64,000 nucleotides of DNA. Source: Bacteroidota bacterium. Lineage in GTDB: Bacteria > Bacteroidota > Bacteroidia > Bacteroidales > WCHB1-69. The stretch covers positions 4,242-68,241 of the forward strand of contig JBAXTE010000015.1 in the NCBI GenBank assembly GCA_037130365.1, in the 5' to 3' direction. The position numbers and the translations under genes are program-made. This document shows positions 33,901-50,304 of this stretch, one piece after another. The notes under the pieces are model-generated. The model searched no databases and was not told the origin of the DNA. It saw only the letters and a program-made list of their open reading frames with translations. Each line of letters opens with the position of its first letter. Positions within the stretch are counted from its first letter, which is position 1.

Positions 33901-36477
33901 TACAGCTGCCATATTAAAAGTAAAAGGACGATGAGTAGAAATGTAAGTATCGAAATATTTCACACCAAAGAAAACGTCTTGAGTGGAAAATTCAAACAAA
34001 GAAACTCGGTTTACTGGTCTTCCAGTTTCATCAAATACAGTGGAGTAAATTTTTCCTTGTAGCATTCCCACACCTTCAAAAATGGGCATAGTGAATACTT
34101 CGGAAGCGCGTCCATTGTCATCGGTTTTGGTTGTACGGACAATATTTTCAATTGCGATGTCATTTTTTACATTTACATTGAAATCATAATCAGAAAAACC
34201 CTTTGGATGAATAATGGTGCGGTTAAGGCTCATTTCATTTTCAACTTTTCTACCAGTGGCAGGAGTGCCAAAAAGATTGTTCGCATCTACATTCACCATC
34301 AACCGGTCGCCAGAATTAAGCTGAGTGCCCGATAATTCGACTTTTACAGCAATCCGATCGGGCATAAATTCTTCGGTAGAAAAGCGGTAAGAATTGAGCA
34401 TAATGTCGTTACCTGAATAAACTTCGAGAGTATAAACTCCAGTTAATGAAGAGTTTGGAAGTTTAAAAGCAATCTCGGCAGCTCCTTGTTTATTGGTCTC
34501 TTTGCGGAAAGAAATCAACTGCTTGCCATTTGGAGCAATAATTTTGTATTTAAGCGGAATTCCACTTGCATTTTGCCAATCTAAAGTTCGGGCAATAGCA
34601 TTGATATACACAGAATCGCCAGGACGATAGAGCTTTCGATCACCATAAATAAATACATCATAATCGATGTTGTTGGTGTATTTTCCACCTACTTCATACC
34701 GGGATGTTTCGATGCGATTGTCGTTAAAATTCAGAAAGTTAAAATCTTCTCCTGAGCGAGCAGTAATCATGCTGATATCAAATCCTGGAAAGAGTTTATT
34801 CATATCTTTCAACATAATTATTCCCTCAGCATTGGTAGTGGCAGTGTACACTTTTTGATTGTTAGTGCTGATAAAATCAAGGCGAATTCCTGCTAATGGT
34901 TTGGATTCTAAAATAGAATTTGCGACAATAAACATATCGTTTTTACCCTTTTTTACTATCAACCCAATGTCCGAAACAGAAACCATCACAGCATCACGTA
35001 AATATCTTCGAGAATCATCTTCAACTTTTACAATGTAAAATCCTTTAAAACTGTTGTTGTAATCAATATCTTGAAGATTTAAATTTAGCAAATAAGTGTT
35101 TAAATTTTTAGGCAAACTCTGAACATTCACCTGTTTTTCGTAAACCATTTTGCCATAATTCTCGTCCATTGGCCATTCATTTGAATCATAATATTCATCA
35201 TCCATGCTGGTTTCATCATACATATACGAATATTGTTTGCCATTTCGGAGATAGTGCATAATATTGTTTTCGAAGACTTTAAATACACTGATTTTTACTT
35301 TGGAGACGTTACCCATACGAATTCCTAAATTCTTTTCTCCTTTCGACGACATGTACAAACTTCCTGGATCGGTGAATGAGATAAAAGGTTTAGATTTAGT
35401 GAAAGTTACCGCTTGCTCATAATCTTTGTCCATAGGTTTTCCGAAAATTCCAGTCAGTTTTGCAGATATGCGGATGTTATAAGTTTTGTCTTCTAAAAAT
35501 GCGCCTTTTAAATTAATGGTATTGTCTTGACCATCGATTTCGAAATCCACACTTGGCTTAATGGAAATAATTTCCTTTAGATTATTGGTGAGAATCGGTT
35601 GGCTAGTGAACACATGAATCACACCTTGACCTTCAACAAATTCTGGAGTCATTCCGATTACCATTAAATTTCCGCGAGCAGGAATATTGGCAGTTTTTTC
35701 CATCAGATAATCCGTGCTTTTTTCTGAGTTTACACACGAAAGTCCTTTATCTACAAATATTTTTACAGGCACTTCTTGATCGCCGGCGTTGGTAGGAGCT
35801 GGAAATTCAACAATAATATTATCAGATTCACCAGCAGTAACCATGCGATGAATCACTTGATAATCGTTGGTGATGATTCGAAGTTTTTTGTCTAATTCAG
35901 ACGCTTTTACGGGATAATTAAACGTTAAATTAGCTTGAACAACTAAGGTATTAGCCATTGCTTCGCTGAGCGACCAGAAAAGACGTGCATTCATAAGCTC
36001 CAAATATGGAGTGTGAAAAACAATCGGATCCGTTTTTACAGCCTTTTTTTCTTTCGAAAGCTTAGAAAGAATAGGAGAGAGGGTTGCTTTATAATCGGTA
36101 TTTGCTTGAAATCCAGCCTCAGGAGAAAATACTAATTCTCGAGCCGATTTCCACTGAAAACGACCTCTCACCGATGGCGAAAACGTCATATATTGGGTGG
36201 TGTCCCATTTGTTAAACAGCGTGTCATTTACGATGTCGTAATTAAAAGTGAACACGAGGTTCTGTTGTCGATCGATTTGCTCGTTGAAATTCATTTCTGA
36301 AACAGAAATTTTACTGGTCTTACACGAAAGTAAAACCACCGTAAACAACGCTAACAGTAGGACTGAAAGCAAAGTGATCTTTTTAAAACGTGATTTTAAT
36401 ACACTTAGGTTTGAAAATAAACCTAACAAGCTGTTCTTTAGAGAGAAAAGAACGCTCATGATGTTTGTCTGTTTCAT
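30976..36477 (-). CDS. bacterial alpha-2-macroglobulin family lipoprotein with thioester
   Basis: 1833 aa. Lipobox-like 'VVLLSC' and the thioester motif 'YPYGCLEQTVS'. Length and MG-domain-like beta-rich repeats fit the family. The exact start is uncertain (alternative Met at 36459). Confidence 0.88.
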   Translation of the reverse strand: MKQTNIMSVLFSLKNSLLGLFSNLSVLKSRFKKITLLSVLLLALFTVVLLSCKTSKISVSEMNFNEQIDRQQNLVFTFNYDIVNDTLFNKWDTTQYMTFSPSVRGRFQWKSARELVFSPEAGFQANTDYKATLSPILSKLSKEKKAVKTDPIVFHTPYLELMNARLFWSLSEAMANTLVVQANLTFNYPVKASELDKKLRIITNDYQVIHRMVTAGESDNIIVEFPAPTNAGDQEVPVKIFVDKGLSCVNSEKSTDYLMEKTANIPARGNLMVIGMTPEFVEGQGVIHVFTSQPILTNNLKEIISIKPSVDFEIDGQDNTINLKGAFLEDKTYNIRISAKLTGIFGKPMDKDYEQAVTFTKSKPFISFTDPGSLYMSSKGEKNLGIRMGNVSKVKISVFKVFENNIMHYLRNGKQYSYMYDETSMDDEYYDSNEWPMDENYGKMVYEKQVNVQSLPKNLNTYLLNLNLQDIDYNNSFKGFYIVKVEDDSRRYLRDAVMVSVSDIGLIVKKGKNDMFIVANSILESKPLAGIRLDFISTNNQKVYTATTNAEGIIMLKDMNKLFPGFDISMITARSGEDFNFLNFNDNRIETSRYEVGGKYTNNIDYDVFIYGDRKLYRPGDSVYINAIARTLDWQNASGIPLKYKIIAPNGKQLISFRKETNKQGAAEIAFKLPNSSLTGVYTLEVYSGNDIMLNSYRFSTEEFMPDRIAVKVELSGTQLNSGDRLMVNVDANNLFGTPATGRKVENEMSLNRTIIHPKGFSDYDFNVNVKNDIAIENIVRTTKTDDNGRASEVFTMPIFEGVGMLQGKIYSTVFDETGRPVNRVSLFEFSTQDVFFGVKYFDTYISTHRPFTFNMAAVNKKGAAMNTSTKVQIIRNEYESVIQRSGSNYSYNSNRREVVVLNQTVSFTGGKSQINYTPTKSGEYEIRIYSNKGDGYVSRRFYSYGASDTEFSSFNVDKDGEILIEKDKESYNVGESADLLFKCPFSGKIIVTVERNEVMDYFILDAKDKSAVLKLPIKDGYVPNMYVTATAIRSLTSSEIPLTVAHGILPITVEKKENKLPVTITAPGQSFSRTKQTVEVTAEAGSQVTIAVVDEGILQMTNYKTPDPYDYFYQKRALEVNSFDLYARIFPELKRYASSFGGDLALDMSKRVNPMTNKRVKLIALWSGILNNTSGKVRYSFDIPHFSGSLRVMAVAWKDKKFGSAEANIKVADPIVISTALPRFLSPGDQVECPVTLSNTTSKSASVVVKISNKGPVKVNGETSQTITIPANSERRVEFNLSADYIIGESQVVVSAVHEGKTYSEEVDLTIRPAAGLIKVFEAGVVEGNSLNFTVNADFIAGSATSKLLVSKSPMVEFSRDLSELLHYPYGCLEQTVSTAFPLLYYRDIAKAIHQENKNMEWNPDYLVQEAIYKVQGLQQYNGGMLYWSSGGQVNWWATTYAIHFLIEAKKAGFEVNQLVIDNGIKYIGQESKESRIEEYFIYDVYGRLNKEKMVKQEVCYSLFVMSLAGKPSISLMNHYKGKLISLTEESKYLLAAAFGLSGDKANYRFILPKQYDYPLYKRDFDGSFNSMIRNMALVLYVLNETEPSNPQITQIARKLSVDVKNSRWLSTQDRSFALLALGKMSKQNMNNVINGTISAGGEQVGVFKNQDFITSKNLNNKPITITKTGTGKLYYFYQTEGISRTGNVADQDKYLMVRKSFFDRFGKPITGDDFEQNALIVVKLSVISTDKSTIPNVAVTDMLPACFEIENPRLTADREYSWTKDRAIPEFLDMRDDRITMFTTVTGYVKNFYYLVRVVSKGTYKMGPVSADAMYDGNYYSYYGSRSVSVK

Positions 36478-36540
36478 AATTTGAAAATTTGAACAAAATT
36501 AATGGAGTTTACAATAATATTGTAAATTGTTCATAACTTT

Positions 36541-36945
36541 TTTTTGATTATCCTCGAAAAATCACAATCAGCTAGTTTGCGGATATTTTTCGGGAATGAT
36601 TTGAAAATGAAGATAGCTATTTGTAAATTACATCCAATCCGCCTAATTTGCATTATCTGCGTACTGTTATCCGCTTAATCCGTGTTATATTTTTTTGGAA
36701 CGCCGATGAATGCCGATGGTGGCGCTGAAAGTGCCAAATAATAATAACCCCGTGCAAAGCACGGGGTAAAAACGAAAAAACGAATAATTTTTGCGAAAAA
36801 ATTGTTGCGAAGCAAAACTATTTTTATACCAAAATTCTACTTATGGCTCAAAATAAAATTCCAATAAAACCTAAATTTTTCTTGCAATATAGTCATCTGA
36901 TCATCCGCGAAAACCCGCTCAATCTGCTTTATCCGTGTTCTATCG
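36541..36945. repeat. composite 'ATCCGC-word' intergenic repeat element, copy A
   Basis: 36550-36623 aligns by eye with 48523-48599 in the same orientation with few mismatches. It is followed by reiterated ATCCGC(G/C/T) words, a GGAACG..GATGA module, and the end motif ATCCGTGTTCTAT. Confidence 0.85.
36740..36768 (-). terminator. candidate terminator for the metalloprotease gene
   Basis: ccccgtgc-aaa-gcacgggg hairpin (36748-36766), followed on the minus strand by a T-rich tract. Confidence 0.4.
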
Positions 36946-36952
36946 AATTTGC

Positions 36953-39421
36953 TCAATAAACTACAATTTTCTTCACGTCAGACAAGTTATCTCCACTATA
37001 AAGTCGCATAAAATAGATTCCATTACTTAGAGCGGTTCTGTTGATGTTTATTTTATTAGAGTTAATATGATCAAATCGAACTATTTCTTTTCCAAAAATA
37101 TCTACTATCGAAATGGAAGCTTGATTAGAAGCGTTGGAAACAGTAATTATGGCATTTTCAGTAAATGGATTTGGAGAGATAGAAAATGTAGGTTTTAGAT
37201 TTCTTTTTTCAATATTAATGGTTGATTCGCAAGAGACAGTCGCATTCCATCCAGTACCTGTAACGCCTTCATCAGCATGAAATTGAAATGTTAACGCACC
37301 CGAAGGATCTGTGGAGACAATAGTTCCCGGATTATTTGTGCCGCAATACATGCCAATTAATGGACTGCTTGTGGTTGATCCATTGTATATTTTTAGGTAA
37401 TCATAAATACAATCTTGAGAATCTTCAACTTGAAATTCTGCGAAATTTACTTTCACAAATGTATTGGCTGTAGGTGCAACTAATGTAGTGGTATAATCCG
37501 TCATATTCGAGTAATTTGCTACATTTCCACCATTATCGAGAAAAATTGCTGCACAAGTTGCTGATGGCGTTTCACCAATAATTATCTGCTGTCCCACCAT
37601 GATTGATTTTGTTATATAATTGGAAAATGTACCATCAGACACTAGGAATTTAAAATCTATTACGGTTCCAATTGGAGTATTCGCTGCAATCAATATATGA
37701 TAAACGGCTGGAATCATTTGGTTTACAGCTATCACACCTAAAGAAATTGAAGGATTTGAAATTGTGATATATTGCGCATTTGTTCCTATAACCGAACATG
37801 TTGCAGTTGCACTAGAAGAACTTAGTTGTCCTAAATTTTTAATTTGAACATTGAGGTCGGCAGATTCTCCCTGTTCTATAAATCCATTTGAGTTGTTGTC
37901 GTTAGTGATTTGTGTATAATGTACTAAAAATGAAGGCGCTGGTTGACCAAATCCTAATTTGTAGGTCATCACTGGACCGGTATTTCCAATTTGCCAAACT
38001 CTAAGGCTGCTAAGATTTGCGTTATAATAATCAGAATTTGGCGACGTGCTGTTCCCGAATTCAGTGTTAAATCCCAAGTGAAAGCATGCATTTGCATGAT
38101 CGTTCATATCGTTTCCTGCGTGTTCGAGATATACTTCGTGATGTGTGGTTTGGTTGTCGCCGCCCCGATCTATGTGCCAAATGGTTAAACCTTCATCAGG
38201 AATAGATGCACTTCGTCCAACTTGAGTTCTATTTTGGAGTAAGAAAAATTCGTTCGTGTCGTTTGGATTAACGTATTTATAGGCAGTAAGTGTATTTGCG
38301 GTATCTGAATTTAATCCGTTAAAATTGGTGACATCTACTAATTTTCCCCAGCCAGCATTTGATATAAAATGAGGATTTGGCGGAACAGGATTTGTGGCAC
38401 TTGCATAACTACACATTAAATCGAAACTGCCAATTCCATCGGTTCCGTTATCGGAGGTATATTTGTAAGTATCAGGCCACTGACCAATCATGTGTCCATT
38501 TTCGTGAGCTACCACAGCAATTTCTAAAGGCTCTTTGGCTGGGGAACAGTTATAGGCACCCGAATGAACCCCATTTGCAGTAAAATTTGGATAATATCCT
38601 TGATGAAACCACATTCCTTGCGACCAAGTTGGTGGATTCCCTGTGTACATTAGATTTATTGCGGTAATTGAGCCATCGGGATTAGTGGTGAGTGTAGAGA
38701 AATTAAATCCTAAATCTGCAATCCAATTTAATGCTAATCCTAATATTTGTTGTGCGCCCTGAGCCATAGGCATTTGGTCGTATTCGGCAAATGTACTTGG
38801 TGCACGAAAGTAACCATAAACCACATTTTCATAATCTACCAAACCTCCGGAAATATCTGAATAATATTTACGTAAAGATCCATTGTTTCCGAAATTTGAA
38901 TAGGATAAATTATTGCAGAAATTTTCAAATTCACTCATAGGCAAAGTACCTGGTTCATCAGAAAAATCTACAACAATGCATAAACCCTTTATATAGCCAT
39001 TAACAGGATGAGGTGGAGTTTTTGAAATCGAAGTATTCTCATTTTCCAATCCTGCTAATCGACGATTTTTGAGAATCACTTTTTCTCGGTTTTTTGATGA
39101 TATGTCGAGATGTTGAGAAATTCCATTAATATTCCGAATTGAGTTTTGATTGCCGGTATATCGAATTCCTGTGGATATTAATTCAGATTTATCCGCAGAT
39201 AACGTTGCATAACATATCCATTTTGATGTATTTTCTCGAATAAGAGTGTATCCGTCAAGACTTTCTCCTCGCATGTAAAATTCAGTACCATAGAGTTTTA
39301 CATTTACGCTACTACCATCTGGTTGTTTAAATTGCATCACTTTGCCATGGTATGGAACTGCAAAAAGTGTAGCTTGAATTGTGACAAAAAATAGGATAAT
39401 TAAAAAGCGATTTTTCAGCAT
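36953..39421 (-). CDS. secreted zinc metalloprotease (M6/immune-inhibitor-A-like domain) with CUB-like domain and T9SS C-terminal sorting domain
   Basis: Signal peptide MLKNRFLIILFFVTIQATLFA (start trimmed to 39421). 'VVAHENGHMIG' HExxH motif, a CUB-like segment (DCIYDYLKIYNGS...IGMYCG), and a CTD (FSISPNPFTENAIITV...NGIYFMRLY). Confidence 0.72.
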   Translation of the reverse strand: MLKNRFLIILFFVTIQATLFAVPYHGKVMQFKQPDGSSVNVKLYGTEFYMRGESLDGYTLIRENTSKWICYATLSADKSELISTGIRYTGNQNSIRNINGISQHLDISSKNREKVILKNRRLAGLENENTSISKTPPHPVNGYIKGLCIVVDFSDEPGTLPMSEFENFCNNLSYSNFGNNGSLRKYYSDISGGLVDYENVVYGYFRAPSTFAEYDQMPMAQGAQQILGLALNWIADLGFNFSTLTTNPDGSITAINLMYTGNPPTWSQGMWFHQGYYPNFTANGVHSGAYNCSPAKEPLEIAVVAHENGHMIGQWPDTYKYTSDNGTDGIGSFDLMCSYASATNPVPPNPHFISNAGWGKLVDVTNFNGLNSDTANTLTAYKYVNPNDTNEFFLLQNRTQVGRSASIPDEGLTIWHIDRGGDNQTTHHEVYLEHAGNDMNDHANACFHLGFNTEFGNSTSPNSDYYNANLSSLRVWQIGNTGPVMTYKLGFGQPAPSFLVHYTQITNDNNSNGFIEQGESADLNVQIKNLGQLSSSSATATCSVIGTNAQYITISNPSISLGVIAVNQMIPAVYHILIAANTPIGTVIDFKFLVSDGTFSNYITKSIMVGQQIIIGETPSATCAAIFLDNGGNVANYSNMTDYTTTLVAPTANTFVKVNFAEFQVEDSQDCIYDYLKIYNGSTTSSPLIGMYCGTNNPGTIVSTDPSGALTFQFHADEGVTGTGWNATVSCESTINIEKRNLKPTFSISPNPFTENAIITVSNASNQASISIVDIFGKEIVRFDHINSNKININRTALSNGIYFMRLYSGDNLSDVKKIVVY

Positions 39422-39771
39422 GGTTTCTCGAATTAATATTTTGGAAGCAAAGATAGAAAAAAGAAATATACTAATAGCGCAATGGAGCAACGTAAATGGT
39501 GAAAGGTACATGTTTCGAAAAATATCAAATCTTCGATGTTTGTTATTTTAGTGGATAATTGAAAAAATAAAAATTGCTTTAGAAAGTTTCTGCTTTTAGG
39601 GATTACAGGGCCAATGGTTCTTGCTTCTACATACTTACAGTTTATGCATTTACACACATAAACAACATACATTATTCATTTCCGCATTTCCGCTACCACA
39701 AGCATTTAGGAACACTTAACTAGAATTATTCTAAATTTTGTTTTCATTCTAATATGTATATAAATTAAATG

Positions 39772-39885: not shown

Positions 39886-42800
39886 ATGAAAAAACAAATT
39901 TCCTCATTAAAATCCATTTTTGGTACAGTTGCACTTCTAGTTGCAATGCTCACCCCGAATATGAGCTGGGGACAATATTCAGGTACTGGTACGTTTACAA
40001 AAATTACATCTCTTACTGATTTAACAGATGGCTATTATGTGGTTGCGTATGGGACAACTTTTGCGATGAGCAATACAAATGCAGGAACTTTTTTTGCAAG
40101 TACTTCAATAACACCTGTATCAAGTGTAATTACTAATCCAACAGCGGCAATAGTTTGGAAAATTCAAACACATGCAGATGGTGGTAGAACAATATATAAT
40201 GAGGCCACTTCAAAATATGTATCTTTTACCGGTACATCTAATGCAGCAATGGCTGTTGCAAGTGTAACAGGTGGTTCAGAACGTTGGACTTTTGCTTGGT
40301 CATCCACCGTTTTTACTGTTACAAATGTAACTACCACAACAAGACTTTTGAAGTATAATACAGCATCACCACGTTTTGCTTGCTATACTACTGGTCAACA
40401 AGATATTACTCTTTATAAAATGCCTAGTTCTCTCACTACACCAACTTTATCGCCAGATATCATTGCAAATACTGTAGATAATCCTATAGATATCACATTT
40501 ACAGATGACGCTGCTTGGAGAACTGCCATAACAGCAGTAAAAATTGGTGGAACAGCGTTAACCGCTACTACAGATTATGTAATTACTGCCGGCAATATTC
40601 AATTAAAACCATCGGGTGGAAATGTATTATTAACAGCATCTGGTTCAAAATCAGTTACTGTAGAAGCCAATGGCTATAGCGCAGCACCTGCTACTCAAAT
40701 AATTAATGCTGGTGTGCCAACTGCCAACTCTACAACTTCTATAAATTTGGCATTAGCGCCAAATACCTCCCGAACGGTTACTTGTACTGCAAAAGATCAA
40801 TATAATAATTTGGTTTCTGGTTATACGTTTAAATATGATGCATCTATAACAAATAACAATGCCACTACCTCAGAGTCATATACCATTGATGGAACAGCTC
40901 GTACATCTACAACAAATGATGTTAATGTTGCAACTGCTACAAATGTAAGTGGTGTAGCAACTTTTACTGTTGCTGTTCCTGCAACATTAGATGGTAGCGA
41001 CGGAATTAGCGTTCAAGTGCAATTATCAAATGGGTCTACAAATATTGGATCAGCATTCTCGTATGCACAATTAGCATCTCAAACAATTACTTTTGGAACG
41101 CTTTCACCTGTCACGTATGGTGATGGAACTTTTGCTATTTCTGCAACTGGTGGTGGCTCTGGTAACGCAGTAATTTTTACCAGTTCAAATACTGCTATGG
41201 CCACTTGTACGGGCACTAATGGAACTACAATCACTATTATTGCTCCAGGAACCTGCACCATTTATGCTGACCAAGCAGGTAATGGAAGTTATAACGCAGC
41301 AATTCAGGTTGGGCAATCACTACTTATTAATAAAAAAGAACTAACTGTTACTGGCGCTACTGGAAATAATAAAGTATATAGTGGAACCAATGCTGCTACA
41401 ATTTCAGGGACTTTATCTGGGGTTATTGGAGCTGATGTGGTTACATTAAATAAAACTGGAACATTTGCTACTGTTGATGTTGCAACTGATATTGTTGTTA
41501 CATCAACTTCTACTCTTTCGGGTACTGATGCTGCAAAATATTCTCTCACTCAACCAACCGGATTAACTGCTGATATTACAAAAGCAGCTCAAACGATTAC
41601 CTTTGGCGCATTAACAAACAAAACCGTTAACGATGCAGATTACGCTCCGGGTGCAATTTCCGCTACATCTGCAACTAATCCAATTTCGTATACCAGCTCA
41701 AATCTTGCAGTTGCCACTATAGTTGCAAATCAAATACATATTATGGGAGTTGGAACAACGACCATAACCGCTTCACAAGCAGCAAGTGCTAATTATAATG
41801 CTGCTACAGATATACCTCAATCATTAACAGTTACTACTGGACCAATATTGGCATGGCAGTTTGGATCTCCAGCTTCTACAGGAAGTGAAGCTACTTTTAC
41901 AGCAACAACAATTAATTCCAATATAAATACATCTTCACTTTCTAGAGGAGTTGGTATAATGGCTACTGGTTTGGCTAGAGGATTTTCTGCTAATGATTGG
42001 ACTCCTGCTGCTACAAAAGCAACAGCCGTTACTAATAATGACTATTACCAGTTCACTGTTAAAGCAAAAGTAAATTATAAAGCTTCACTATCATCATTGG
42101 ATGCGACTTTGCGCCGAACTTCAACTGGACCTAATGCTTATATTTGGAAATACAGTCTAGATGGAACAAATTTTACTGAAATTGGTTCTGATGTTAGTTT
42201 TACAGGTACTGCTGATGGAGCTGCTCAAACTCAAATAAATTTATCTGGAATTTCAGAACTTCAAAATGTTACAAATGCTACCACAATTACTTTCAGATTA
42301 TATGCTTGGGGAGCAACTGATGTTTCAGGCACATTTGCAGTTGCTAGATATGCAGCTGGTATCACAACAAATTGTTTAGCAATTGGTGGTACTGTTGAAT
42401 GTGCTACACCAGCCACTCCTACAACAACGTTAACTCAACCTACTTGTGCAGTTCAATCGGGAACAATTACCATTACTGCTCCCACGGGTGTGACATATAG
42501 CATTGATGGGTCCGATTACTCAAATAATACTGGTATCTTTAGTGGTCTAGCACCAAACACATACAGCGTGACAGCAAAGAATGTTTGTGGCGCTATTTCA
42601 GCTGTTGCAAGTGTAACCATCGATCCAATTCCTGCAACACAATGGACTGGTGCTACCAACAACGAGTGGAGCATAGGAACCAATTGGTGTGGGGGAGTTG
42701 CTCCATCTTCATCAACAGACGTAATTATTCCTTCAGGAAAATCACCACAAATTAATTCAGCAGTTGGAAGTCCAGCTGAGTGTAATAACTTAACTATTCA

Positions 42801-44532
42801 ATCGGGTGGTACTTTGACAATTAACGCAGGAAAAGCGCTTACAGCTTATGGAAATACAGTTATTGAAGGAACTTTTACCGTTAAAGCAGATGTATCTAGT
42901 GCTGGTAGTTTTATTAGCAAAGGTACCGTAACAGGAACTGCAAATGTTGAACGTTGGGTAAGTATTGTAAATAGTAATAATGGCAATACCCAACGTTGGG
43001 AATATATTTCATCTCCAATCGCATCTGCTTCATCAGCACTATTTACAACAAGTATTCATGGATTAAGATATGTGAATGAACCTACAAACACTTGGGTGAG
43101 AATTGATAATGCAGCTCCTCAAACGATGGCAATTTTTAAAGGGTATACCAGAAGTTATCAATCGGCTACAAACGATGGTGGTAATCAGGCAATTACTTAT
43201 AATGGTGCATTAAATACAGGTTCACAATCTATTGGACTAACATATACCGCTGCAGCACCAGGAACTAACCATGGTTGGAATTTAGTGGGTAATCCATACC
43301 CAAGTGCTATTGATTGGGATGCAGCTTCGGGTTGGACTAAATCAAACATCGATGGTGCCATTTATTTTCGCAAAAACGGTACAGCATGTACATATTTAAA
43401 AGATGCTGCTACTGGTGGAGCATCAAACATAATTCCTCCAATGCAAGCATTCTGGGTTAGAGTATCTGCTAATTCTACACTTACTTGTACCGATGCTGTT
43501 AGAGTTCACGTTGCTATACCAGCATACAAAACCACACCAGAAAACACACTCCATCTTACGGTTTCTACGAATGGAAAAAGTGGCTTATCCGATGATACTT
43601 ACATTCGTTTTAAAGATTATGCTACCGATGTTTTTGATAATTCTTGTGATGCGTTTAAAATGTTTGCAGAAGATGCAGCATTTCCTCAAATATACACCAT
43701 AACTGGCACTGATTCTTTGGCAATCAATAGCTTAAGTGCATTAACTAGCGATCGTGTTATTCCACTCATGTTCAAATCAACTGCTGTTGGAACATTTACA
43801 CTTACTGCCGAATTGGTTTCGAGTTTTGCAAATAGTGGCTATTATGTTTTCTTGAAAGATAAAGAAACCGGAATCATTCAAAACTTATCGGAAAATCCTC
43901 ATTATCAATTTTCTACATCCACAATAAAAGGAAACGATCGTTTTGAAGTTCAGTTTAAATCAAATACAACTCCATTGCCAATTGACCTAATCAGTTTCGA
44001 TGCAAAATGTGTGAACAACCAAGTCGCATTAAACTGGTCAACTGCTTCAGAAGTAAACAATGACTTTTTCTCAATTGAACGTAGCAAAGATGTTTTAAAT
44101 TGGGATTTAGTAGAAAAAATTCATGGTGCTGGCAATAGTAATCATTTGATAAATTATTCGTCAAAAGATGTTGAAACAACTGGTGGCACTTCATATTACC
44201 GCTTAAAACAAACCGACTTTGATGGCAAAACCGTTACCTATAGTCCTGTAACCGTTACTTGTGCTGATAATTCTACACAAACATCAGTATCATATTTTCC
44301 AAATCCATTTACATCGGAAGTAAAAGTAGAAGTTAAAAACTCAACATCAGAAACCGCTACTGTTACAATTTACGACATCTTTGGAACAAAAGTTTATACA
44401 AGGGTTCTAAATATCGATGAACTTGGGGACAAATCAATTATCTTGAATCTATCTGATTTAGCAGCTGGTGTTTATGGCGTAGAATTTCGTTCCGCAACAT
44501 ATTCTAATATTTCAAAAATCGTGAAAAAATAA
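39886..44532 (+). CDS. giant cell-surface adhesin-like protein with Ig-like/MBG-type repeats and T9SS C-terminal sorting domain
   Basis: The ATG at 39886 gives signal peptide MKKQISSLKSIFGTVALLVAML. T/S/A-rich Ig-like repeats include ..KVYSGTNAATISGTLSGVIGADVVTLN..AAKYSLTQPTGLTADITK... CTD (SYFPNPFTSEVKVEV...AGVYGVEFR). Confidence 0.8.
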   Translation: MKKQISSLKSIFGTVALLVAMLTPNMSWGQYSGTGTFTKITSLTDLTDGYYVVAYGTTFAMSNTNAGTFFASTSITPVSSVITNPTAAIVWKIQTHADGGRTIYNEATSKYVSFTGTSNAAMAVASVTGGSERWTFAWSSTVFTVTNVTTTTRLLKYNTASPRFACYTTGQQDITLYKMPSSLTTPTLSPDIIANTVDNPIDITFTDDAAWRTAITAVKIGGTALTATTDYVITAGNIQLKPSGGNVLLTASGSKSVTVEANGYSAAPATQIINAGVPTANSTTSINLALAPNTSRTVTCTAKDQYNNLVSGYTFKYDASITNNNATTSESYTIDGTARTSTTNDVNVATATNVSGVATFTVAVPATLDGSDGISVQVQLSNGSTNIGSAFSYAQLASQTITFGTLSPVTYGDGTFAISATGGGSGNAVIFTSSNTAMATCTGTNGTTITIIAPGTCTIYADQAGNGSYNAAIQVGQSLLINKKELTVTGATGNNKVYSGTNAATISGTLSGVIGADVVTLNKTGTFATVDVATDIVVTSTSTLSGTDAAKYSLTQPTGLTADITKAAQTITFGALTNKTVNDADYAPGAISATSATNPISYTSSNLAVATIVANQIHIMGVGTTTITASQAASANYNAATDIPQSLTVTTGPILAWQFGSPASTGSEATFTATTINSNINTSSLSRGVGIMATGLARGFSANDWTPAATKATAVTNNDYYQFTVKAKVNYKASLSSLDATLRRTSTGPNAYIWKYSLDGTNFTEIGSDVSFTGTADGAAQTQINLSGISELQNVTNATTITFRLYAWGATDVSGTFAVARYAAGITTNCLAIGGTVECATPATPTTTLTQPTCAVQSGTITITAPTGVTYSIDGSDYSNNTGIFSGLAPNTYSVTAKNVCGAISAVASVTIDPIPATQWTGATNNEWSIGTNWCGGVAPSSSTDVIIPSGKSPQINSAVGSPAECNNLTIQSGGTLTINAGKALTAYGNTVIEGTFTVKADVSSAGSFISKGTVTGTANVERWVSIVNSNNGNTQRWEYISSPIASASSALFTTSIHGLRYVNEPTNTWVRIDNAAPQTMAIFKGYTRSYQSATNDGGNQAITYNGALNTGSQSIGLTYTAAAPGTNHGWNLVGNPYPSAIDWDAASGWTKSNIDGAIYFRKNGTACTYLKDAATGGASNIIPPMQAFWVRVSANSTLTCTDAVRVHVAIPAYKTTPENTLHLTVSTNGKSGLSDDTYIRFKDYATDVFDNSCDAFKMFAEDAAFPQIYTITGTDSLAINSLSALTSDRVIPLMFKSTAVGTFTLTAELVSSFANSGYYVFLKDKETGIIQNLSENPHYQFSTSTIKGNDRFEVQFKSNTTPLPIDLISFDAKCVNNQVALNWSTASEVNNDFFSIERSKDVLNWDLVEKIHGAGNSNHLINYSSKDVETTGGTSYYRLKQTDFDGKTVTYSPVTVTCADNSTQTSVSYFPNPFTSEVKVEVKNSTSETATVTIYDIFGTKVYTRVLNIDELGDKSIILNLSDLAAGVYGVEFRSATYSNISKIVKK

Positions 44533-44550: not shown

Positions 44551-44739
44551 ATGAAAATCAAAGAAACAGAAAAGAATAGGTATTGTAGCCCCGAAATTCG
44601 AGTGATAAAAATTGATCATGAGATTTCGTTAGTGATGGCATCAGCAACAGGCGGTGGCGACCCTCCTCCAGGAGATGAAAATTCATCAATACAACCAGAA
44701 CGCTTTGGTGGCAATCCATTTAAACTGCCTACAGCGTAA
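44551..44739 (+). CDS. candidate RiPP precursor peptide (62 aa) with lasso-type leader motif
   Basis: MKIKETEKNRYCSPEIRVIKIDHEISLVMASATGGGDPPPGDENSSIQPERFGGNPFKLPTA. It has a YxxPxI motif, an ASA|T AXA site, T-G|G followed by D/E at core positions 8/9, and a locally GC-rich Gly/Pro core. It lies 18 nt after the adhesin stop and just upstream of the PqqD gene. Confidence 0.45.
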   Translation: MKIKETEKNRYCSPEIRVIKIDHEISLVMASATGGGDPPPGDENSSIQPERFGGNPFKLPTA

Positions 44740-44768
44740 TCTATAAAAGTTCTAATCGTATATAGCAT

Positions 44769-44813
44769 CATAGCTCTTTCAAACAATTTGAGAGGAGTTA
44801 TGGTGTTTTTTTT
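44769..44813 (+). terminator. candidate (attenuating) terminator after the small ORF
   Basis: Long imperfect hairpin catagctctttcaaa-caa-tttgagaggagttatg, followed by gtgtttttttt. Confidence 0.4.
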
Positions 44814-44908
44814 GAACGCAGATGTCTCAGCTGAATGCAGATTGCGCAGATTATTTTTGTTTTTATCCGCGAAGATCCGCCTGATCTGCCTAATTCGTGT
44901 TCTATTTA
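44812..44908. repeat. 'ATCCGC-word' repeat element, short copy B
   Basis: ttgaacgcagatg..gaatgcagat...tatccgcgaagatccgcctgatctgcctaattcgtgttctatttat parallels 48633-48720 and 36696-36945. Confidence 0.8.
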
Positions 44909-44984
44909 TTTAGTGATATATTCATCAGATGACTATTTACATCCTCTACTTAAAGATTTTTTGTATTTTTACATAAAAAATCAG

Positions 44985-45266
44985 ATGGACTTATCAGAAT
45001 TATACCATAAGAAATCAAGTTTTGCAGCAAGAAATGTCGGTACAGAGATTATCTTAGTGCCAGTTAAAAATAGTGTTGCTGATATGAACGAGTTATTTAC
45101 TTTAAACGAAGTTGGTAGTTTTATCTGGAATCATATTGATGGAGAAAAGTCTGAAAATGATATTGTTAAAGCACTAATTGTTGATTTTAACGTAGATGAA
45201 GAAAGAGCAATTAAAGATGTGAAGGAATTTATAGAAAGTTTAAAAGCTCTGATTGAAAAATCTTAA
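44985..45266 (+). CDS. PqqD-family protein (RiPP recognition element, lasso B1-like)
   Basis: 93 aa from the ATG at 44985. '..GTEIILVPVKN...LFTLNEVGSFIWNHIDGEKSENDIVKALIVDFNVDEERAIKDVKEFIESL' fits the PqqD pattern. The 50 codons upstream in the ORF track merely translate repeat copy B. Confidence 0.78.
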   Translation: MDLSELYHKKSSFAARNVGTEIILVPVKNSVADMNELFTLNEVGSFIWNHIDGEKSENDIVKALIVDFNVDEERAIKDVKEFIESLKALIEKS

Positions 45267-45269
45267 ATT

Positions 45270-46154
45270 GTGTCAATTTTGAATTCGAAAACTATTTGTA
45301 TTGCTGGCTTTATTATAAAATTATGTTCTGAAAATCAGGAGGGATTTCTTTTAGAGGAAGGATTTATTCCATTTCTGATCAATCATAATTCAAATGATTT
45401 TGATGTGTCGATAACTAGTGTAATTGGAATTCCAGAGGCTTTATTGATGACAGATAATTTGCTTTTTGAAGCTAAAAATGAACAACAAAAATTCTTTTCA
45501 ATTTATCAGCAGGGTGAATCGTATAAATTTATTGTTTATAATCAACAGCTAGATAACAATGAAATTCAGCAGGTAGCAATCCTGAATCAAGACTTAAATA
45601 ATTGGATTGTATATTCAGCAAAATCTGAAAATAATGAATTAGTATATCCCATTTTATATCCGTTGGGTCCATTAGTGATGTATTATTTAACCGTAAAATA
45701 TGATGCGATTATGATTCATGCTTCTGGTGTTTTTGATGGACAGTATGGTAGGATTTTTTCTGGAGTATCAGGAACTGGAAAATCAACGATTTCCTTTTTG
45801 TGGCAAAAAAATGGAAGTTTAATTATTAACGACGATCGTTTAATCATTCGCAAAGAGCACGATGATTATTACATATACAACACACCCATGTTTTACGCTG
45901 ATATTCCTAAAAGAACTCAATTGCATTCGGTAAACTTAATTCATCATGCTTCAAGAAATAATGCAATTCGACTAAATGGAGCCATGGCTGTTTCGCAATT
46001 AATGGCTTTCTGTATACAACATAGCTATAATAATGCTTTCTTAGAACATCACCTCGAGTTTCTTTCTGGACTTTGCGCCCAATTGCCCGTGTACGATTTA
46101 GGGTTTTTACCTGACGATAATATTGTTAATTATATAAAAGCAAATGCAGTCTGA
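45270..46154 (+). CDS. HPr kinase (HprK)-like serine kinase family protein
   Basis: 294 aa with a GTG start 3 nt after the PqqD stop. 'IHASGVFDGQYGRIFSGVSGTGKSTISFLWQKNGSLIINDDRLII' parallels the HprK/P C-terminal domain (H.G.....G.G.L..G.SG.GKS....L...G..L..DD). Confidence 0.72.
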   Translation: MSILNSKTICIAGFIIKLCSENQEGFLLEEGFIPFLINHNSNDFDVSITSVIGIPEALLMTDNLLFEAKNEQQKFFSIYQQGESYKFIVYNQQLDNNEIQQVAILNQDLNNWIVYSAKSENNELVYPILYPLGPLVMYYLTVKYDAIMIHASGVFDGQYGRIFSGVSGTGKSTISFLWQKNGSLIINDDRLIIRKEHDDYYIYNTPMFYADIPKRTQLHSVNLIHHASRNNAIRLNGAMAVSQLMAFCIQHSYNNAFLEHHLEFLSGLCAQLPVYDLGFLPDDNIVNYIKANAV

Positions 46155-48387
46155 TCAATTATTTAATGAATTACATGAGCTGATTGACGAATTGCTTACC
46201 GATAATAAATGGGTAAAGCTCAAGGTTGGCGGGTATAGTATGTTCCCCTTTTTTAAGAATGGTGAGATTATTACCATTAAAAAATGTCCTGCTTCTGAAC
46301 TTGTAATAGGAGATGTGGTTGTTTTTAAAATTAGGGATAAATGGATTGCGCATCGGTTAATCAAAATCCAACTTATTGACAACAAAAAGATTCTAATTAC
46401 CAAAGGAGATTCATGCAAAAAAATAGATTCAAAGTTTGCTGAAGAATGCATTATTGGTAAAGTTGTATCTTTTTCTAAGAATCATCAACCGAAAAGCCTT
46501 GAAACGAAATATTATAAAATTATTGGAAGGATTATGGCTCAGTTTTCGACCATTGTTACCCCGTTTATTGTCGCTTTATTATGGCTAGTTTTGCGAGTAA
46601 TGAGAGTTTATAAAAGCATTAAGAATGTCTTTAAAAGTATGTTCTTTATTTGCCGAGATTCAAGGCGCATCGCATTCGTGAACATACTTATTTCTGTTTT
46701 TCAAGGAGTTCTACCTTTCGTAATTATTTATTTGATTAAACGATTAGTTGATGCAATTTCGGTAGTCAATTCATACACTGATAAGATTGATGCATATAAA
46801 GTAATCGGGGTTATTATTGTGGTCACAGGCATTGCTTTTCTAGCGCAATCTATCTTATCGATTATAGGTAATGAAATTCGGGTAAGGCTTACTCAGTCGA
46901 TTACGATGTATATTTATAGGTTGCTTCATAAAAAATATTCTTCATTAGAAATGGCTTATATTGAAGATGCAAATCAACAGGATGTTATTCATCGTGCAGT
47001 TCAAGAAGCTGGTTTTAGACCAATTAAAATGGTAAACGAAAGTCTTTCGGTAGTTCAATCTTTAGCCTCTTGGTTATTTATTGCAGTGATCTTGTTTACA
47101 ATACATTGGGCTGTTTTTTTTCTGATAATAATTGCTGTTTTACCAGGTTTTTTAATCCGGATTAAATATTCAAAGAAATTTTATAATCTAAATAAAGAGA
47201 ATAGCCCAAAAGAGCGTGAAGCACATTATTACAATAGAATTTTAACAGGACTGCCCTTTGCTAAGGAACTTCGGCTCTTCGGTCTTGAGAATTTCTTCAC
47301 TGGCAGATTTAATAATATTCAAAAAGATTTATACCATAAAAAAAACAAATTATCTCGGAAGCAGGCAATTGCAGATATTTATGCACAGACTTTTGCTATC
47401 GTGGTTATCTTTTTGTCCTTTGGATTTGTTGCTTATCTTGGCGTTAATGGTTCAATATCAATCGGCACAGTGGTGCTTTTCTTTTTGATTTTTCAGAGAG
47501 GATTTTCTGTAATGAAAGACCTTTTTCAGTCAATTGCAGGGTTATTTGGTGACAATGTTTTTATAAATGATTTCTTTTATTTTTTGAAATTTTCGCCACT
47601 GCAAGAATTGTCCGAAGTTAAAGAAACGATAGCTCCATTACAAAAAGGAATTGTGGTCGAAAATGTGAGCTTTCATTATCCTTCTAGCCAACGGCAAGCA
47701 CTTCAATCAATTTCATTACAAATTCCTGCGGGCAAAACGGTGGCGCTTGTGGGAGCAAATGGATCGGGAAAAACAACCCTCGTCAAATTACTTTGTGGGT
47801 TTTATACTCCACAGCAAGGTAGAATCTTATTCGATAATATAGATATTTCATCGATAAATCCTGACGAAATTCGTGAGCAAATTTCTGCCGTTTTTCAAGA
47901 TTTTGCATTATATAATTTAACAGCAAAAGAGAATATTGCTCTTGGGATGAATTCAAAACCGATAAATGATAGCGAAATTGAACAATCAGCATCTAATTCT
48001 GGTATTGCAGAAGTCCTTGCTAAACTCCCAAACGGATACGATAGTTTGCTTGGGAATTTGTTCGAAAAAGGGGAGGAGCTTAGCATTGGTCAGTGGCAAA
48101 AAATTGCAATTGCTAAAGCTTTTTATCGGAATACGCCAATACTTTTTATGGACGAACCATCGAGTGCACTAGATGCAGAAACAGAATTACATATTTTGAA
48201 CAACTTAAAATTATTGGCAAAAGATAAAACAACCCTCATAATAAGTCATCGTTTTTCGACAATTAAGTGGGTGGATGTGATATATGTTTTAGACGAAGGT
48301 GTTGTTGTCGAAAGTGGCGATCATGAAAAATTAATGGCATTAGAAGGCAAGTATTTTAATATGTATCAGCACAGTGTGAATAAATAG
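46144..48387 (+). CDS. ABC exporter (6-TM + NBD) fused to an N-terminal S26B (SipW/Sec11-type) signal-peptidase-like domain
   Basis: 747 aa; the start overlaps the kinase stop by 11 nt. N-terminal ~120 aa carry 'GGYSMFP', 'IAHRLI' and 'ITKGDS'. Then comes an extra hydrophobic helix, six TM helices, Walker A 'GANGSGKTT', signature 'LSIGQWQ', Walker B 'ILFMDEPSSALD' and 'ISHR'. Confidence 0.82.
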   Translation: MQSDQLFNELHELIDELLTDNKWVKLKVGGYSMFPFFKNGEIITIKKCPASELVIGDVVVFKIRDKWIAHRLIKIQLIDNKKILITKGDSCKKIDSKFAEECIIGKVVSFSKNHQPKSLETKYYKIIGRIMAQFSTIVTPFIVALLWLVLRVMRVYKSIKNVFKSMFFICRDSRRIAFVNILISVFQGVLPFVIIYLIKRLVDAISVVNSYTDKIDAYKVIGVIIVVTGIAFLAQSILSIIGNEIRVRLTQSITMYIYRLLHKKYSSLEMAYIEDANQQDVIHRAVQEAGFRPIKMVNESLSVVQSLASWLFIAVILFTIHWAVFFLIIIAVLPGFLIRIKYSKKFYNLNKENSPKEREAHYYNRILTGLPFAKELRLFGLENFFTGRFNNIQKDLYHKKNKLSRKQAIADIYAQTFAIVVIFLSFGFVAYLGVNGSISIGTVVLFFLIFQRGFSVMKDLFQSIAGLFGDNVFINDFFYFLKFSPLQELSEVKETIAPLQKGIVVENVSFHYPSSQRQALQSISLQIPAGKTVALVGANGSGKTTLVKLLCGFYTPQQGRILFDNIDISSINPDEIREQISAVFQDFALYNLTAKENIALGMNSKPINDSEIEQSASNSGIAEVLAKLPNGYDSLLGNLFEKGEELSIGQWQKIAIAKAFYRNTPILFMDEPSSALDAETELHILNNLKLLAKDKTTLIISHRFSTIKWVDVIYVLDEGVVVESGDHEKLMALEGKYFNMYQHSVNK

Positions 48388-48721: not shown

Positions 48722-49912
48722 TTATTTTTTGATAATTGTTTTTTTTATTAGAAATAAGAGTTCGAAAAGGCCAGCTTTTAATCGAACCAAATAATACAAA
48801 AAAATCAGCCATTTACTTTTAATCTGATATCGCTTTCGCATATAATTTGAAGAAGGAAATATGTCATTCAAAAGATATTTAAATTTATTTCCAAATCCCG
48901 AAACTCGCTTTATTGCTTCTACGCTTGTATTTGATATTGTTTTTTTTATTTCTATAGTATCCCCTTTGAAATAGGATATAAATAATTGTTCAAAATCTTG
49001 TTCAAATGACTGATAAACATTTGATTGTATTTCTTCTGGTAATAAAGCTCCAAAATATTTATTAATAATATAAAGATGCCGATTCACATTTTTTGTGCAA
49101 TTATACTTTATACATGTCTGATTAAAAGTATCCCAATTAAATTCGTCTTTATAAAACTTCAGCACTGCCGCAATGTCGCAATACGAATAAAGTTGAATTT
49201 TTCCATACATAAAATGGTAGTCTAAATGTAGGCAAAGATGTTGTAATAAGTCGTTCGGCGATAATGCTAAACACTTCGAGTTATTGATTGTAACAGGTTG
49301 AGCATTTTGCCAATAATCATCGATATCAACATAATATTCACAATTGCTGGGATGAATTTTTAAATGTAATTCAACCGGAATATTTTCTTTTAAAAGTTGA
49401 GGTAAGTGCTTTATATCAGTATTCCTTTTTATAAAATCTGATTTGTAACGATCTTCGCATACAAAGCCAATATTGATTAAGGAGTTTTTGCAATTTTCTG
49501 CATCATCAACTTTCACAAGTAAGTCAATATCGCTCATTTGGCGGATTCCCAAATCTTTATAAATGCAGTTGACCAGAAAGATTCCCTTTAAAGCAATCAC
49601 CGGAGTTCCTAGCTCTGAAATTGCATTAATGACATCGTTAAAATTTTTATAGATGATTTCATTTCGAAAAAAAGACTGGTAATAGGTCTGTTTTAATTTT
49701 GATATTGTAGAATCAGGAATTGAAGAATAATTAATGGCATATGAAAGGTTCTTATAAATTAATGGACCTACGCTATTGCGAATTACATTGTTGGTAAAGT
49801 TATCCCAATCGTTTACGTTACTAATCAATTGCTCCATTGATAAAATCTCATCATCTGAAGGATGAAGTCTAGCTGCTGCAAATATTAGTTTATCTTCAAC
49901 GGAAATTGTCAT
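48722..49912 (-). CDS. uncharacterised nucleotidyltransferase family protein (NTP_transf_5 / PF14907-like)
   Basis: 396 aa. 'IALKGIFLVNCIYKDLGIRQMSDIDLLVKVDDAENCKNSLINIGF' matches the family core (LKG....Y.D.G.R...DIDLLV). Confidence 0.7.
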   Translation of the reverse strand: MTISVEDKLIFAAARLHPSDDEILSMEQLISNVNDWDNFTNNVIRNSVGPLIYKNLSYAINYSSIPDSTISKLKQTYYQSFFRNEIIYKNFNDVINAISELGTPVIALKGIFLVNCIYKDLGIRQMSDIDLLVKVDDAENCKNSLINIGFVCEDRYKSDFIKRNTDIKHLPQLLKENIPVELHLKIHPSNCEYYVDIDDYWQNAQPVTINNSKCLALSPNDLLQHLCLHLDYHFMYGKIQLYSYCDIAAVLKFYKDEFNWDTFNQTCIKYNCTKNVNRHLYIINKYFGALLPEEIQSNVYQSFEQDFEQLFISYFKGDTIEIKKTISNTSVEAIKRVSGFGNKFKYLLNDIFPSSNYMRKRYQIKSKWLIFLYYLVRLKAGLFELLFLIKKTIIKK

Positions 49913-50096
49913 TTCAAAAGAGGTAGTTTAATTATAAGTATACATGAAATTTATCGTACCAATATTCAAAGATAAAACATTTTTGAGCTTGGGCTCAAAT
50001 TTTTATCAACTACAATTAATGTTTTAATCAATGGAGCTTAAATTCAAAAGAATAATTATTAAGTGAACACAATTTATTTATGAAAATATTTTGTAT

Positions 50097-50123
50097 AAAA
50101 AAAACCCACCGATATAGTGGGTT
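50097..50123 (-). terminator. rho-independent terminator after tRNA-Ser
   Basis: The minus strand reads cccac-tatatcg-gtggg followed by T8. Confidence 0.6.
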
Positions 50124-50138
50124 GTTTAAAATTGATTG

Positions 50139-50225
50139 CGGAGAGATAGGGATTCGAACCCTAGGACCCCTCGCGAGGTCAACAGTTTTCGAGACTGCCC
50201 CAATCGACCACTCTGGCATCTCTCC
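50139..50225 (-). tRNA. tRNA-Ser (anticodon CGA), class II with long variable arm; CCA not encoded
   Basis: GGAGAGATGCCAGAGTGGTCGATTGGGGCAGTCTCGAAAACTGTTGACCTCGCGAGGGGTCCTAGGGTTCGAATCCCTATCTCTCCG folds by hand into a cloverleaf. The acceptor is GGAGAGA/TCTCTCC, the anticodon loop is CTCGAAA, and the T-arm is TAGGG-TTCGAAT-CCCTA. Confidence 0.88.
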
Positions 50226-50229
50226 ATTT

Positions 50230-50291
50230 TTGGGAGTTCTTCCTGACTGCCCCTCCCGATAACTATCGGGACGACCACTCTGGCATCTCTC
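50230..50291 (-). pseudogene. truncated 5' fragment of tRNA-Ser with an 18-nt hairpin insertion, located in the tRNA-Ser leader
   Basis: GGAGAGATGCCAGAGTGGTCG[TCCCGATAGTTATCGGGA]GGGGCAGTC... repeats tRNA positions 1-21 and 25-33. It then diverges and has no 3' half. A 29-bp perfect direct repeat lies at 50205-50233 and 50272-50300. Confidence 0.55.
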
Positions 50292-50304
50292 CATTTTTGG
50301 TTTG

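Follow-up and report, generated by a model that had tools for sequence, protein, structure and literature searches.

What does a short open reading frame (ORF) wedged between the gene of a large secreted protein and a PqqD gene encode in a member of the Bacteroidota? The ORF in question (44551-44739, + strand, 62 codons) lies in a stretch of 64,000 nucleotides (nt) of contig JBAXTE010000015.1 (assembly GCA_037130365.1, Bacteroidales, WCHB1-69), hereafter the window, and its translation is MKIKETEKNRYCSPEIRVIKIDHEISLVMASATGGGDPPPGDENSSIQPERFGGNPFKLPTA. The original prediction, made from the letters alone, had seen in it a lasso-type leader motif, a signal-peptidase site and a lasso-compatible core. 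We conclude that the ORF probably encodes the precursor of a ribosomally made and post-translationally modified peptide (RiPP) of the linear polyphosphorylated peptide (LPP) type, namely a linear phosphorylated peptide. In this analysis we observed a gene family with conserved positions, the domain identities of the enzymes encoded next door, the absence of the lasso enzymes, and the synteny of the locus.

LPPs, represented by the lppA-K-B-S-D-N genes of Paenibacillus alginolyticus, were first defined in May 2026 (Popov et al., Nat Commun 2026; PMC13381572), when they were called restricted to Bacillota and their function was unknown. Their clusters encode a discrete RiPP recognition element (RRE), LppB, together with an HprK-like kinase LppK, an MsbA-like exporter LppD and a nucleotidyltransferase LppN, for which no role was detected. 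The precursors follow the consensus YxxPxVLxHQxIxFETxxS, in which Y(-16) and P(-13) are required for RRE binding, as determined by a crystal structure and mutagenesis. LppK adds one to four phosphates to core Ser3, and the peptidase LppS (S29/H68/D93) cuts after T(-1) only when LppB presents the precursor, a cleavage favoured by Ser polyphosphorylation (PMC13381572).

A conserved family of short peptides

The peptide matches no model in Pfam or NCBIfam, and a search with the single sequence returned one relative only, 92% identical. A search with the neighbouring kinase (480 clusters) was used to fetch 80 loci from species-representative genomes, of which 79 carry a Bacteroidota label (Paludibacter and other Bacteroidales as well as Flavobacteriales and Sphingobacteriales). 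The other one, L016 (SACF01000018.1), carries the label of an alphaproteobacterial metagenome-assembled genome, which is probably a binning error because its genes are 98-99% like those of the Bacteroidales locus L013. When the short ORFs of these loci were all searched with an iterated profile, 47 relatives of the peptide turned up in about 40 of the 80 kinase-anchored loci, and in three of these loci (L037, L054 and L055) the peptides occur as 3-5 tandem copies, a typical precursor trait. When a family profile built from 41 members was compared with a collection of 5.8 billion proteins, at least 648 clusters were matched at E ≤ 0.01, none with a Pfam domain and all but one unnamed or hypothetical.

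Conservation was counted over 162 unique family sequences, with positions numbered from the Tyr that corresponds to Y11 of the window peptide. This Tyr, the Pro at +3 and the Asp at +11 (Y11, P14 and D22) are invariant (162/162). Together with a hydrophobic residue at +5 (Ile, Val or Leu in 157), the first two make up a YxxPx[IV] motif at codons Y11-I16 (44581-44598), which would bind the RRE and is preceded by conserved Lys or Arg at Y-3 (152 of 162) and Y-2. Farther on, +8 is Ile or Val in 156 sequences, +10 is Leu, Ile or Met in all 162, +13 is Glu or Asp in 157 and +14 (I25) is Ile in 160. Position +15 (S26) is Ser in 158, Ala in 3 and Thr in 1; +16 is Leu or Met in 157, Ile in 3 and Thr in 2; +18 is Leu or Met in all 162; and +20 (S31) is Ser in 161 and Thr in 1. 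Pro directly follows S31 in 20 of the 162 members, and some members have S31 as their last residue (...ISLVMTS and ...ISILMAS are examples) or extend 1-2 residues beyond it. Because these positions are conserved across 162 unique sequences, the ORF, judged from its sequence relatives, is a genuine gene under protein-level selection.

The leader motif of the YxxPxL type claimed for this ORF (Y11-C-S-P14-E-I16) is therefore present and conserved, which upholds the earlier view of a RiPP-type precursor with YxxPxI as a putative recognition element for the PqqD protein. The other claimed elements fared less evenly. ISLVM-A30-S-A32|T33 and T33-G34|G35 were both verified in the translation, and Asp stands at 8 and Glu at 9 when G35 is position 1. 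Across the family, however, the Ala-X-Ala (AXA) site is not kept (Y+19 is E, A, Q, M, D and others; Y+21 is S, A, D, T, P, E or N), and neither is the Thr(-2) register, for which Y+22/Y+23 are Pro-Pro in about 70% of the members. A search of relatives and syntenic loci, proposed as a check, thus found the ORF and YxxPxI conserved but not ASA. A hypervariable core had been expected next to PqqD; the tail after +20 does vary, yet xPPxGPxE and [ND]P[FY]K persist in it, with [NDS]P[FY] in 136 tails. Among 214 window ORFs of 40-120 amino acids (aa), taken as a chance background, Y..P.[ILV] occurs in 2, A.A in 25 and T.G-x5-7-[DE] in 4, and by these rates the leader motif alone is unusual, whereas chance readily yields both an AXA site and a lasso-compatible core. 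Nor does the peptide look like a Sec signal peptide ending in an AXA site, since the hydrophobic stretch before A30-S-A32 is broken by K20, D22, H23 and E24 and E, Q, D and P are among the residues found at Y+19 and Y+21 in the family.

The high guanine-plus-cytosine (GC) content noted for the core is real (63.6% at 44647-44679 vs 33.6% for the window). Foreign origin was considered as its cause and dropped, because the stretch merely reflects the codon composition of Gly, Pro and Asp (GGN, CCN, GAY). Downstream of the peptide gene, the predicted hairpin and T-run were confirmed as an intrinsic-terminator-like element (44764-44813, + strand), with a stem of about 20 base pairs at 44764-44807 followed by U8 at 44806-44813. 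Its folding energy is -22.2 kcal/mol (z = -4.2), and none of 200 shuffles folded equally well. A simple terminator scan did not pick up this hairpin, and an Rfam search of 39-51 kb gave no match; a hairpin with a T-run lies 3' of about 30 of the 47 family peptide genes.

A second architecture of the family occurs in Sphingobacteriales and Flavobacteriales. At 6254-12764 of L054 (Parapedobacter), and also in L037, L055 and L058, 3-5 tandem peptides of 25-42 aa stop at or shortly after the conserved Ser. In L054 three tandem peptides of 30-32 aa are followed by PqqD, the kinase, a stand-alone signal peptidase I (SpI), a transporter of MatE/MOP-like type, NTP_transf_5 and a phosphotransferase of the LicD family. 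This locus contains no type IX secretion system (T9SS) gene, and the MatE/MOP-like transporter stands in place of the ATP-binding cassette (ABC) exporter described below.

Modification and export genes beside the peptide gene

The gene that follows the peptide encodes a discrete PqqD-family RRE of 94 aa (44982-45266, + strand; PF05402, 8e-17). The listed 143-codon ORF (44835-45266) overstates it; the start is the ATG at 44982, since homologs are about 94 aa long (median 94) and begin MD(L/I)..L. The spacer before this start measures 242 nt; besides the hairpin it contains a single -7 box of the Bacteroidetes type (TATTTTTG at 44852), which no -33 TTTG accompanies. The best curated match of the protein is lasso_PqqD_Bac, below its cutoff, and it also matches, weakly but specifically, TbiB1 (1e-4), PbaB1 (5e-3) and LppB (E 5e-5, 22% identity over 59 aa), the similarity to LppB being no better than that to lasso B1 proteins.

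Next comes an LppK-like P-loop kinase of the HprK type with 294 aa (45270-46154, + strand). It has a Walker A motif and weak HprK-related and PEPCK sequence matches, and the best PDB matches of its family profile are HprK/P. The AlphaFold model (predicted local distance difference test, pLDDT, 94.8) matches the HprK/P and PEPCK fold with probability 1.00, and by this modelled fold the protein may be counted as the HprK-like kinase of an LPP cluster.

The third gene (46144-48387, + strand) encodes a 747-aa fusion of a peptidase and an exporter. Its N-terminal S24/S26-like part, the first 135 aa (46144-46548), forms an LppS-like domain of archaeal/ER-type SpI. The first 169 aa alone score 68.6 bits against TIGR02228, whose cutoff is 51.85, and match human SEC11A/C among solved structures. 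The domain aligns with LppS end to end (26% identity over 134 aa, E 2e-16), and the alignment takes in the N-terminal helix, which Popov et al. model in contact with the RRE. The expectation of an S26-family leader peptidase is thus substantiated. S32, H70, D89 and D95 are invariant in 29 loci, S32, H70 and D89 being the catalytic residues, and the residue aligned with F42 of LppS is hydrophobic too. The remainder of the protein (46549-48387) is an LppD-like, MsbA-like ABC exporter with transmembrane and ATPase parts (ABC_membrane, ABC_tran, MsbA 9e-89, hydropathy).

Convergent to this operon lies a gene for an LppN/PsmN-like NTP_transf_5 nucleotidyltransferase of 396 aa (48722-49912, - strand; PF14907, 1.8e-53). 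When the loci were compared, the kinase was present in 81 of 81, PqqD, kinase and SpI/ABC each in 75-81 of 81, the fusion in 76 of 81, and NTP_transf_5 in about 23 of 81 including the window. The other genes flanking the 80 fetched loci are unrelated housekeeping genes; a defence system or a mobile element was considered for the locus and dropped, as the neighbourhood gave it no support.

Comparison with the LPP pathway and related systems

The gene set shares with LPP clusters an archaeal-type SpI with Ser/His/Asp, a discrete RRE, a kinase of the HprK-like type, an MsbA-like exporter and NTP_transf_5, and like them has no cyclase. The peptides also share a layout, with a small hydroxyl residue at Y+15, a conserved Ser a few residues on, and a tail rich in Gly, Pro and Asn. 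Several differences stand beside these likenesses. The hosts here are Bacteroidota rather than Bacillota, peptidase and exporter form one fused protein, and NTP_transf_5 is frequently absent. The consensus is K-x-Y-x-x-P-x-I-E-x-I-x-L-D-x-E-I-S-L-x-L-x-S-x-P-P instead of YxxPxVLxHQxIxFETxxS, and the conserved Ser stands at +5 from the predicted cut instead of +3. Finally, each precursor gene here tends to have a T9SS cargo gene as its partner and often lies at a distance from the enzyme genes, whereas LPP precursor genes lie in capsule loci.

We compared the Bacteroidota peptide profile with an LppA profile made from 14 sequences in the supplement of PMC13381572. The hhalign alignment covered only 14 columns, KK.Y..P.[VI] (P 8e-4, probability 24%). 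Homology of the precursor to LppA is not claimed, as both LppA alone and the LppA alignment matched the RRE motif only. As far as the profiles can tell, the peptides form a distinct precursor family with an LPP layout, and we file the locus as an LPP variant without treating its place in the LPP clade as proven.

Two SpI-ABC fusions from Bacteroidota already stand, within one small network cluster, in Supplementary Data 1 of PMC13381572; they are flagged for an RRE, were not analysed and have no precursor listed. They belong to Paludibacter propionicigenes and to Porphyromonadaceae CG2_30_38_12, the latter being our locus L059, which carries a peptide of the present family. The same table gives one RRE sequence for both Kuenenia stuttgartiensis CAJ74029.1 and Porphyromonadaceae OIP81680.1 (rows CAJ74028.1 and OIP81682.1), and the PqqD gene of L059 itself matches that sequence, which suggests a copying error in the Kuenenia row. 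Pairs of SpI and RRE listed there (PMC13381572) in Planctomycetota, Acidobacteriota and Dehalobacter hint at a wider superfamily.

Three other systems resemble parts of the locus. Phosphorylated lasso peptides (paeninodin, pseudomycoidin) have a [Y/W]xxPx[L/V/I] leader bound by a discrete B1/PqqD RRE, an HprK-like kinase acting on a Ser at or near the C-terminus, and an NTP_transf_5 protein (PsmN) linked to glycosylation; the locus differs from them in having no B2 cysteine protease, macrolactam cyclase, conserved Thr(-2) or ring Asp/Glu, and a linear product is expected. A leader peptidase likewise sits at the exporter N-terminus, coupling leader removal to export, in the peptidase-containing ABC transporters of double-glycine bacteriocins and lanthipeptides, but theirs is a C39 cysteine protease, while the domain here has the Ser/His/Asp S26B signal-peptidase fold, the leader lacks a GG motif, and presentation presumably needs an RRE. 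SipW/Sec11 peptidases share the fold and the catalytic motifs SM-x-P, H-R and G-D. The domain here has no N-terminal membrane anchor but an N-terminal amphipathic helix as in LppS, its substrate is not a Sec signal peptide, and its partners would be cytoplasmic by homology to LppS.

A T9SS cargo gene paired with the peptide gene

The peptide gene is preceded by that of a T9SS cargo protein (39886-44532, + strand), the adhesin of the original prediction. This protein consists of a variable N-terminal half, a conserved module of about 450 aa and a C-terminal sorting domain, and has 1548 aa when counted from M10 of the listed 1557-codon TTG ORF (from 39859). The ATG at 39886 is probably the true start, because the database representative, P0241, is 1548 aa long and the resulting signal peptide is typical (MKKQISSLKSIFGTVALLVAML). 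P0241 is 100% identical over the 471-aa module query. Between the stop codon that ends at 44532 and the peptide ORF there are 18 nt, which confirms the gap noted before; co-transcription with the upstream gene, raised then as a possibility, is probable.

The module (aa ~920-1390, 42616-44028, + strand) co-occurs with the peptide gene. Of 29 loci with a long-type peptide and enough upstream sequence, about 28 have it ahead of the peptide gene, at a median gap of 27 nt from cargo stop to peptide start. The pair is kept even where it lies apart from PqqD or on the other strand (L007, L071, L072, L074 and L078), and L045 and L053 have two pairs each; the pairing was noted in L081-L085 as well. In contexts reached from the peptide on long contigs, 3 of 3 peptides lay directly behind a module-bearing Por_Secre_tail gene, with no PqqD, kinase or SpI within 9 kb. 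The proposed linkage of the peptide gene to PqqD therefore holds in part, the peptide gene being tied more tightly to the T9SS gene. With precursor-cargo cassettes scattered in this way, the modification enzymes would often have to work in trans. In the other direction the link does not hold: the module family has 12,914 representatives at E ≤ 0.001, and sampled module-bearing genes are often without a peptide.

No Pfam or NCBIfam model covers the module. Its AlphaFold model is all-beta (pLDDT 90, predicted template modelling score 0.88), and a Foldseek search of this model against the PDB gave no meaningful match. Farther upstream and on the opposite strand (30976-39511), two more large secreted proteins are encoded, an M6-type metalloprotease of 852 aa that carries CUB and T9SS sorting domains and an unannotated protein of 1833 aa; neither has the module or a companion peptide. 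On the other side, just beyond the nucleotidyltransferase gene, lies a tRNA-Ser(CGA) gene (50138-50225, - strand), which Rfam missed at the gathering threshold; the 88-codon ORF overlapping it (50028-50294, - strand) is almost certainly spurious.

Proposed maturation and leader cleavage site

We infer the acceptor Ser, the exact cut site, the order of the steps and the fate of the product in the following scheme. The peptide gene would be transcribed together with the upstream cargo gene, and transcription would largely end at the hairpin. In the cytoplasm the PqqD-type RRE would bind the leader through Y11-x-x-P14-x-I16, by analogy with LppB, and the HprK-like kinase would phosphorylate S31, possibly several times. 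The nucleotidyltransferase may extend the phosphate, although its gene is not universal. With the RRE presenting the substrate, the SpI domain on the exporter N-terminus would cut off the leader, most likely after S26 (leader 1-26, core L27-A62; codons S26-L27, 44626-44631), and the same polypeptide would export the core across the inner membrane. The putative acceptor, codon S31 (44641-44643), would then be core position 5, in analogy with core S3 of LppA and the C-terminal Ser of paeninodin. In the short members S31 would stand at or near the C-terminus, a parallel to the paeninodin type of C-terminal Ser phosphorylation.

The cut after S26 is the site that we prefer, with reasonable though limited confidence. 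It had been a worry that Tyr and the Thr of the supposed cleavage site are 22 and not 15 residues apart; this worry falls away with the near-invariant small residue at Y+15, S26, whose spacing matches that from Y(-16) to T(-1) in LppA. The geometry of RRE and peptidase is likely conserved. Only small residues (Ser, Ala or Thr) occur at Y+15, compatible with the -1 position of a signal peptidase. The same pathway could instead cut after S31 (or at A32|T33), so that the Pro/Gly-rich tail is the product and both conserved Ser stay in the leader. M29-A30-S31 has the hydrophobic(-3)/small(-1) pattern of F-E-T in LppA, L-V-M-A-S mimics I-R-F-E-T, the equivalent of F42 in LppS is hydrophobic, and the window peptide has A30-S-A32. 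A Pro at +1 blocks cleavage by type I signal peptidases, and the Pro that follows S31 in 20 of 162 members counts for the S26 site. The members that end at S31 or 1-2 residues on adjoin an SpI with an intact triad, and so the cut should be upstream of S31. A cut after S31 would also give a product without a conserved Ser/Thr acceptor, though the kinase is the most conserved gene, and A32|T33 is disfavoured by the variety of residues at Y+21, where AXA is not conserved. We regard a cut after S31 or at A32|T33 as possible but rather unlikely.

Alternatives to the LPP-type precursor fare worse. For a lasso precursor cut after G34, with a ring from G35 to Asp42/Glu43 and enzymes encoded elsewhere, one can cite the YxxPxI motif beside a PqqD gene for which lasso B1 proteins are the top matches, both curated and in the PDB (the leader and B1 part of the lasso definition, which the locus does show), the kinase and NTP_transf_5 as known lasso tailoring genes, and the Thr(-2) and the acidic residues at 8 and 9 of the window peptide. 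Going by gene content, however, this reading fails three defining tests, because there is no cyclase, no B2 protease and no conserved register of Thr(-2) and ring acid. No Asn-synthetase-like cyclase and no transglutaminase-like B2 protease were found among the larger ORFs of the window or the gene families of the 80 syntenic loci, where the sole peptidase is the S26B domain. Thr(-2) with Asp/Glu at 7-9 occurs in the window sequence only, T33-G34 being Pro-Pro in most homologs, and the family has no conserved acidic ring position; the pattern T.G-x5-7-[DE] arises by chance in 4 of 214 short ORFs. An identical gene set without a cyclase yields linear peptides in Bacillota (PMC13381572). The lasso precursor of the original prediction is accordingly highly improbable. 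Hardly better placed, and very unlikely in our view, is a small protein partnering the T9SS cargo (as a chaperone, a regulator or a subunit secreted with it), which would be no substrate of the enzymes and would adjoin PqqD incidentally. The position behind the module-bearing gene in the kinase-anchored and the peptide-first contexts speaks for it, as do the short gaps and, in the latter contexts, the lack of modification genes within 9 kb. But the conserved residues are exactly the RRE-binding Tyr and Pro plus two Ser, about half of the kinase-anchored loci hold a peptide next to PqqD, the short-peptide loci have tandem peptides directly upstream of PqqD and no T9SS gene, and the charged residues K20, D22, H23 and E24 leave the peptide without a Sec signal. 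That the ORF is a chance reading frame between the adhesin gene and the PqqD operon could be suspected from its shortness, its lack of a Pfam or NCBIfam match and its single close relative in the single-sequence search; the 162 unique sequences, which keep invariant positions although their identity is 30-50%, refute this, independent pipelines call the gene in many assemblies, and its likelihood is practically nil.

Several points nevertheless weigh against the LPP-type reading. LPP chemistry is predicted here from sequence and modelled structure. The precursor is not detectably homologous to LppA beyond the 14-column KK.Y..P.[VI], and the RRE shares no more than 22% identity with LppB, over 59 aa; a single origin of the entire pathway is therefore unproven. 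L27-V-M29-A-S31 resembles I-R-F-E-T(-1) of LppA better than D22-H-E24-I-S26 does, and with the hydrophobic residue at the LppS F42 equivalent a cut after S31 is possible. The nucleotidyltransferase is missing from most loci, many peptide genes are far from modification clusters so that processing in trans has to be assumed, and no component for export across the outer membrane is evident.

Implications for LPP biology in Bacteroidota

New here are the fusion of peptidase and exporter, the distinct precursor family and its tight pairing with a T9SS cargo gene. With 480 kinase clusters and 648 peptide clusters, LPP enzymology would be widespread in Bacteroidota. The family gives a naming rule for hundreds of overlooked genes of 50-65 aa, and its short members (25-32 aa) form a natural substrate series for biochemistry.

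The near-obligate pairing of precursor and T9SS cargo is a testable lead to function, and it points to the cell surface, in parallel to the capsule loci in Bacilli. As a tentative and rather speculative proposal, the peptides may be cargo-specific companions of T9SS surface proteins, matured in trans by one PqqD-kinase-SpI/ABC cluster, exported to the periplasm, phosphorylated (possibly glycosylated), and acting on or with the cargo module. Such a companion might be a ligand that travels outward together with the folded cargo, or it might serve as acceptor or anchor at the removal of the sorting domain. If true, this would be a RiPP pathway for building the cell surface and not for antibiosis, and the first function proposed for LPPs.

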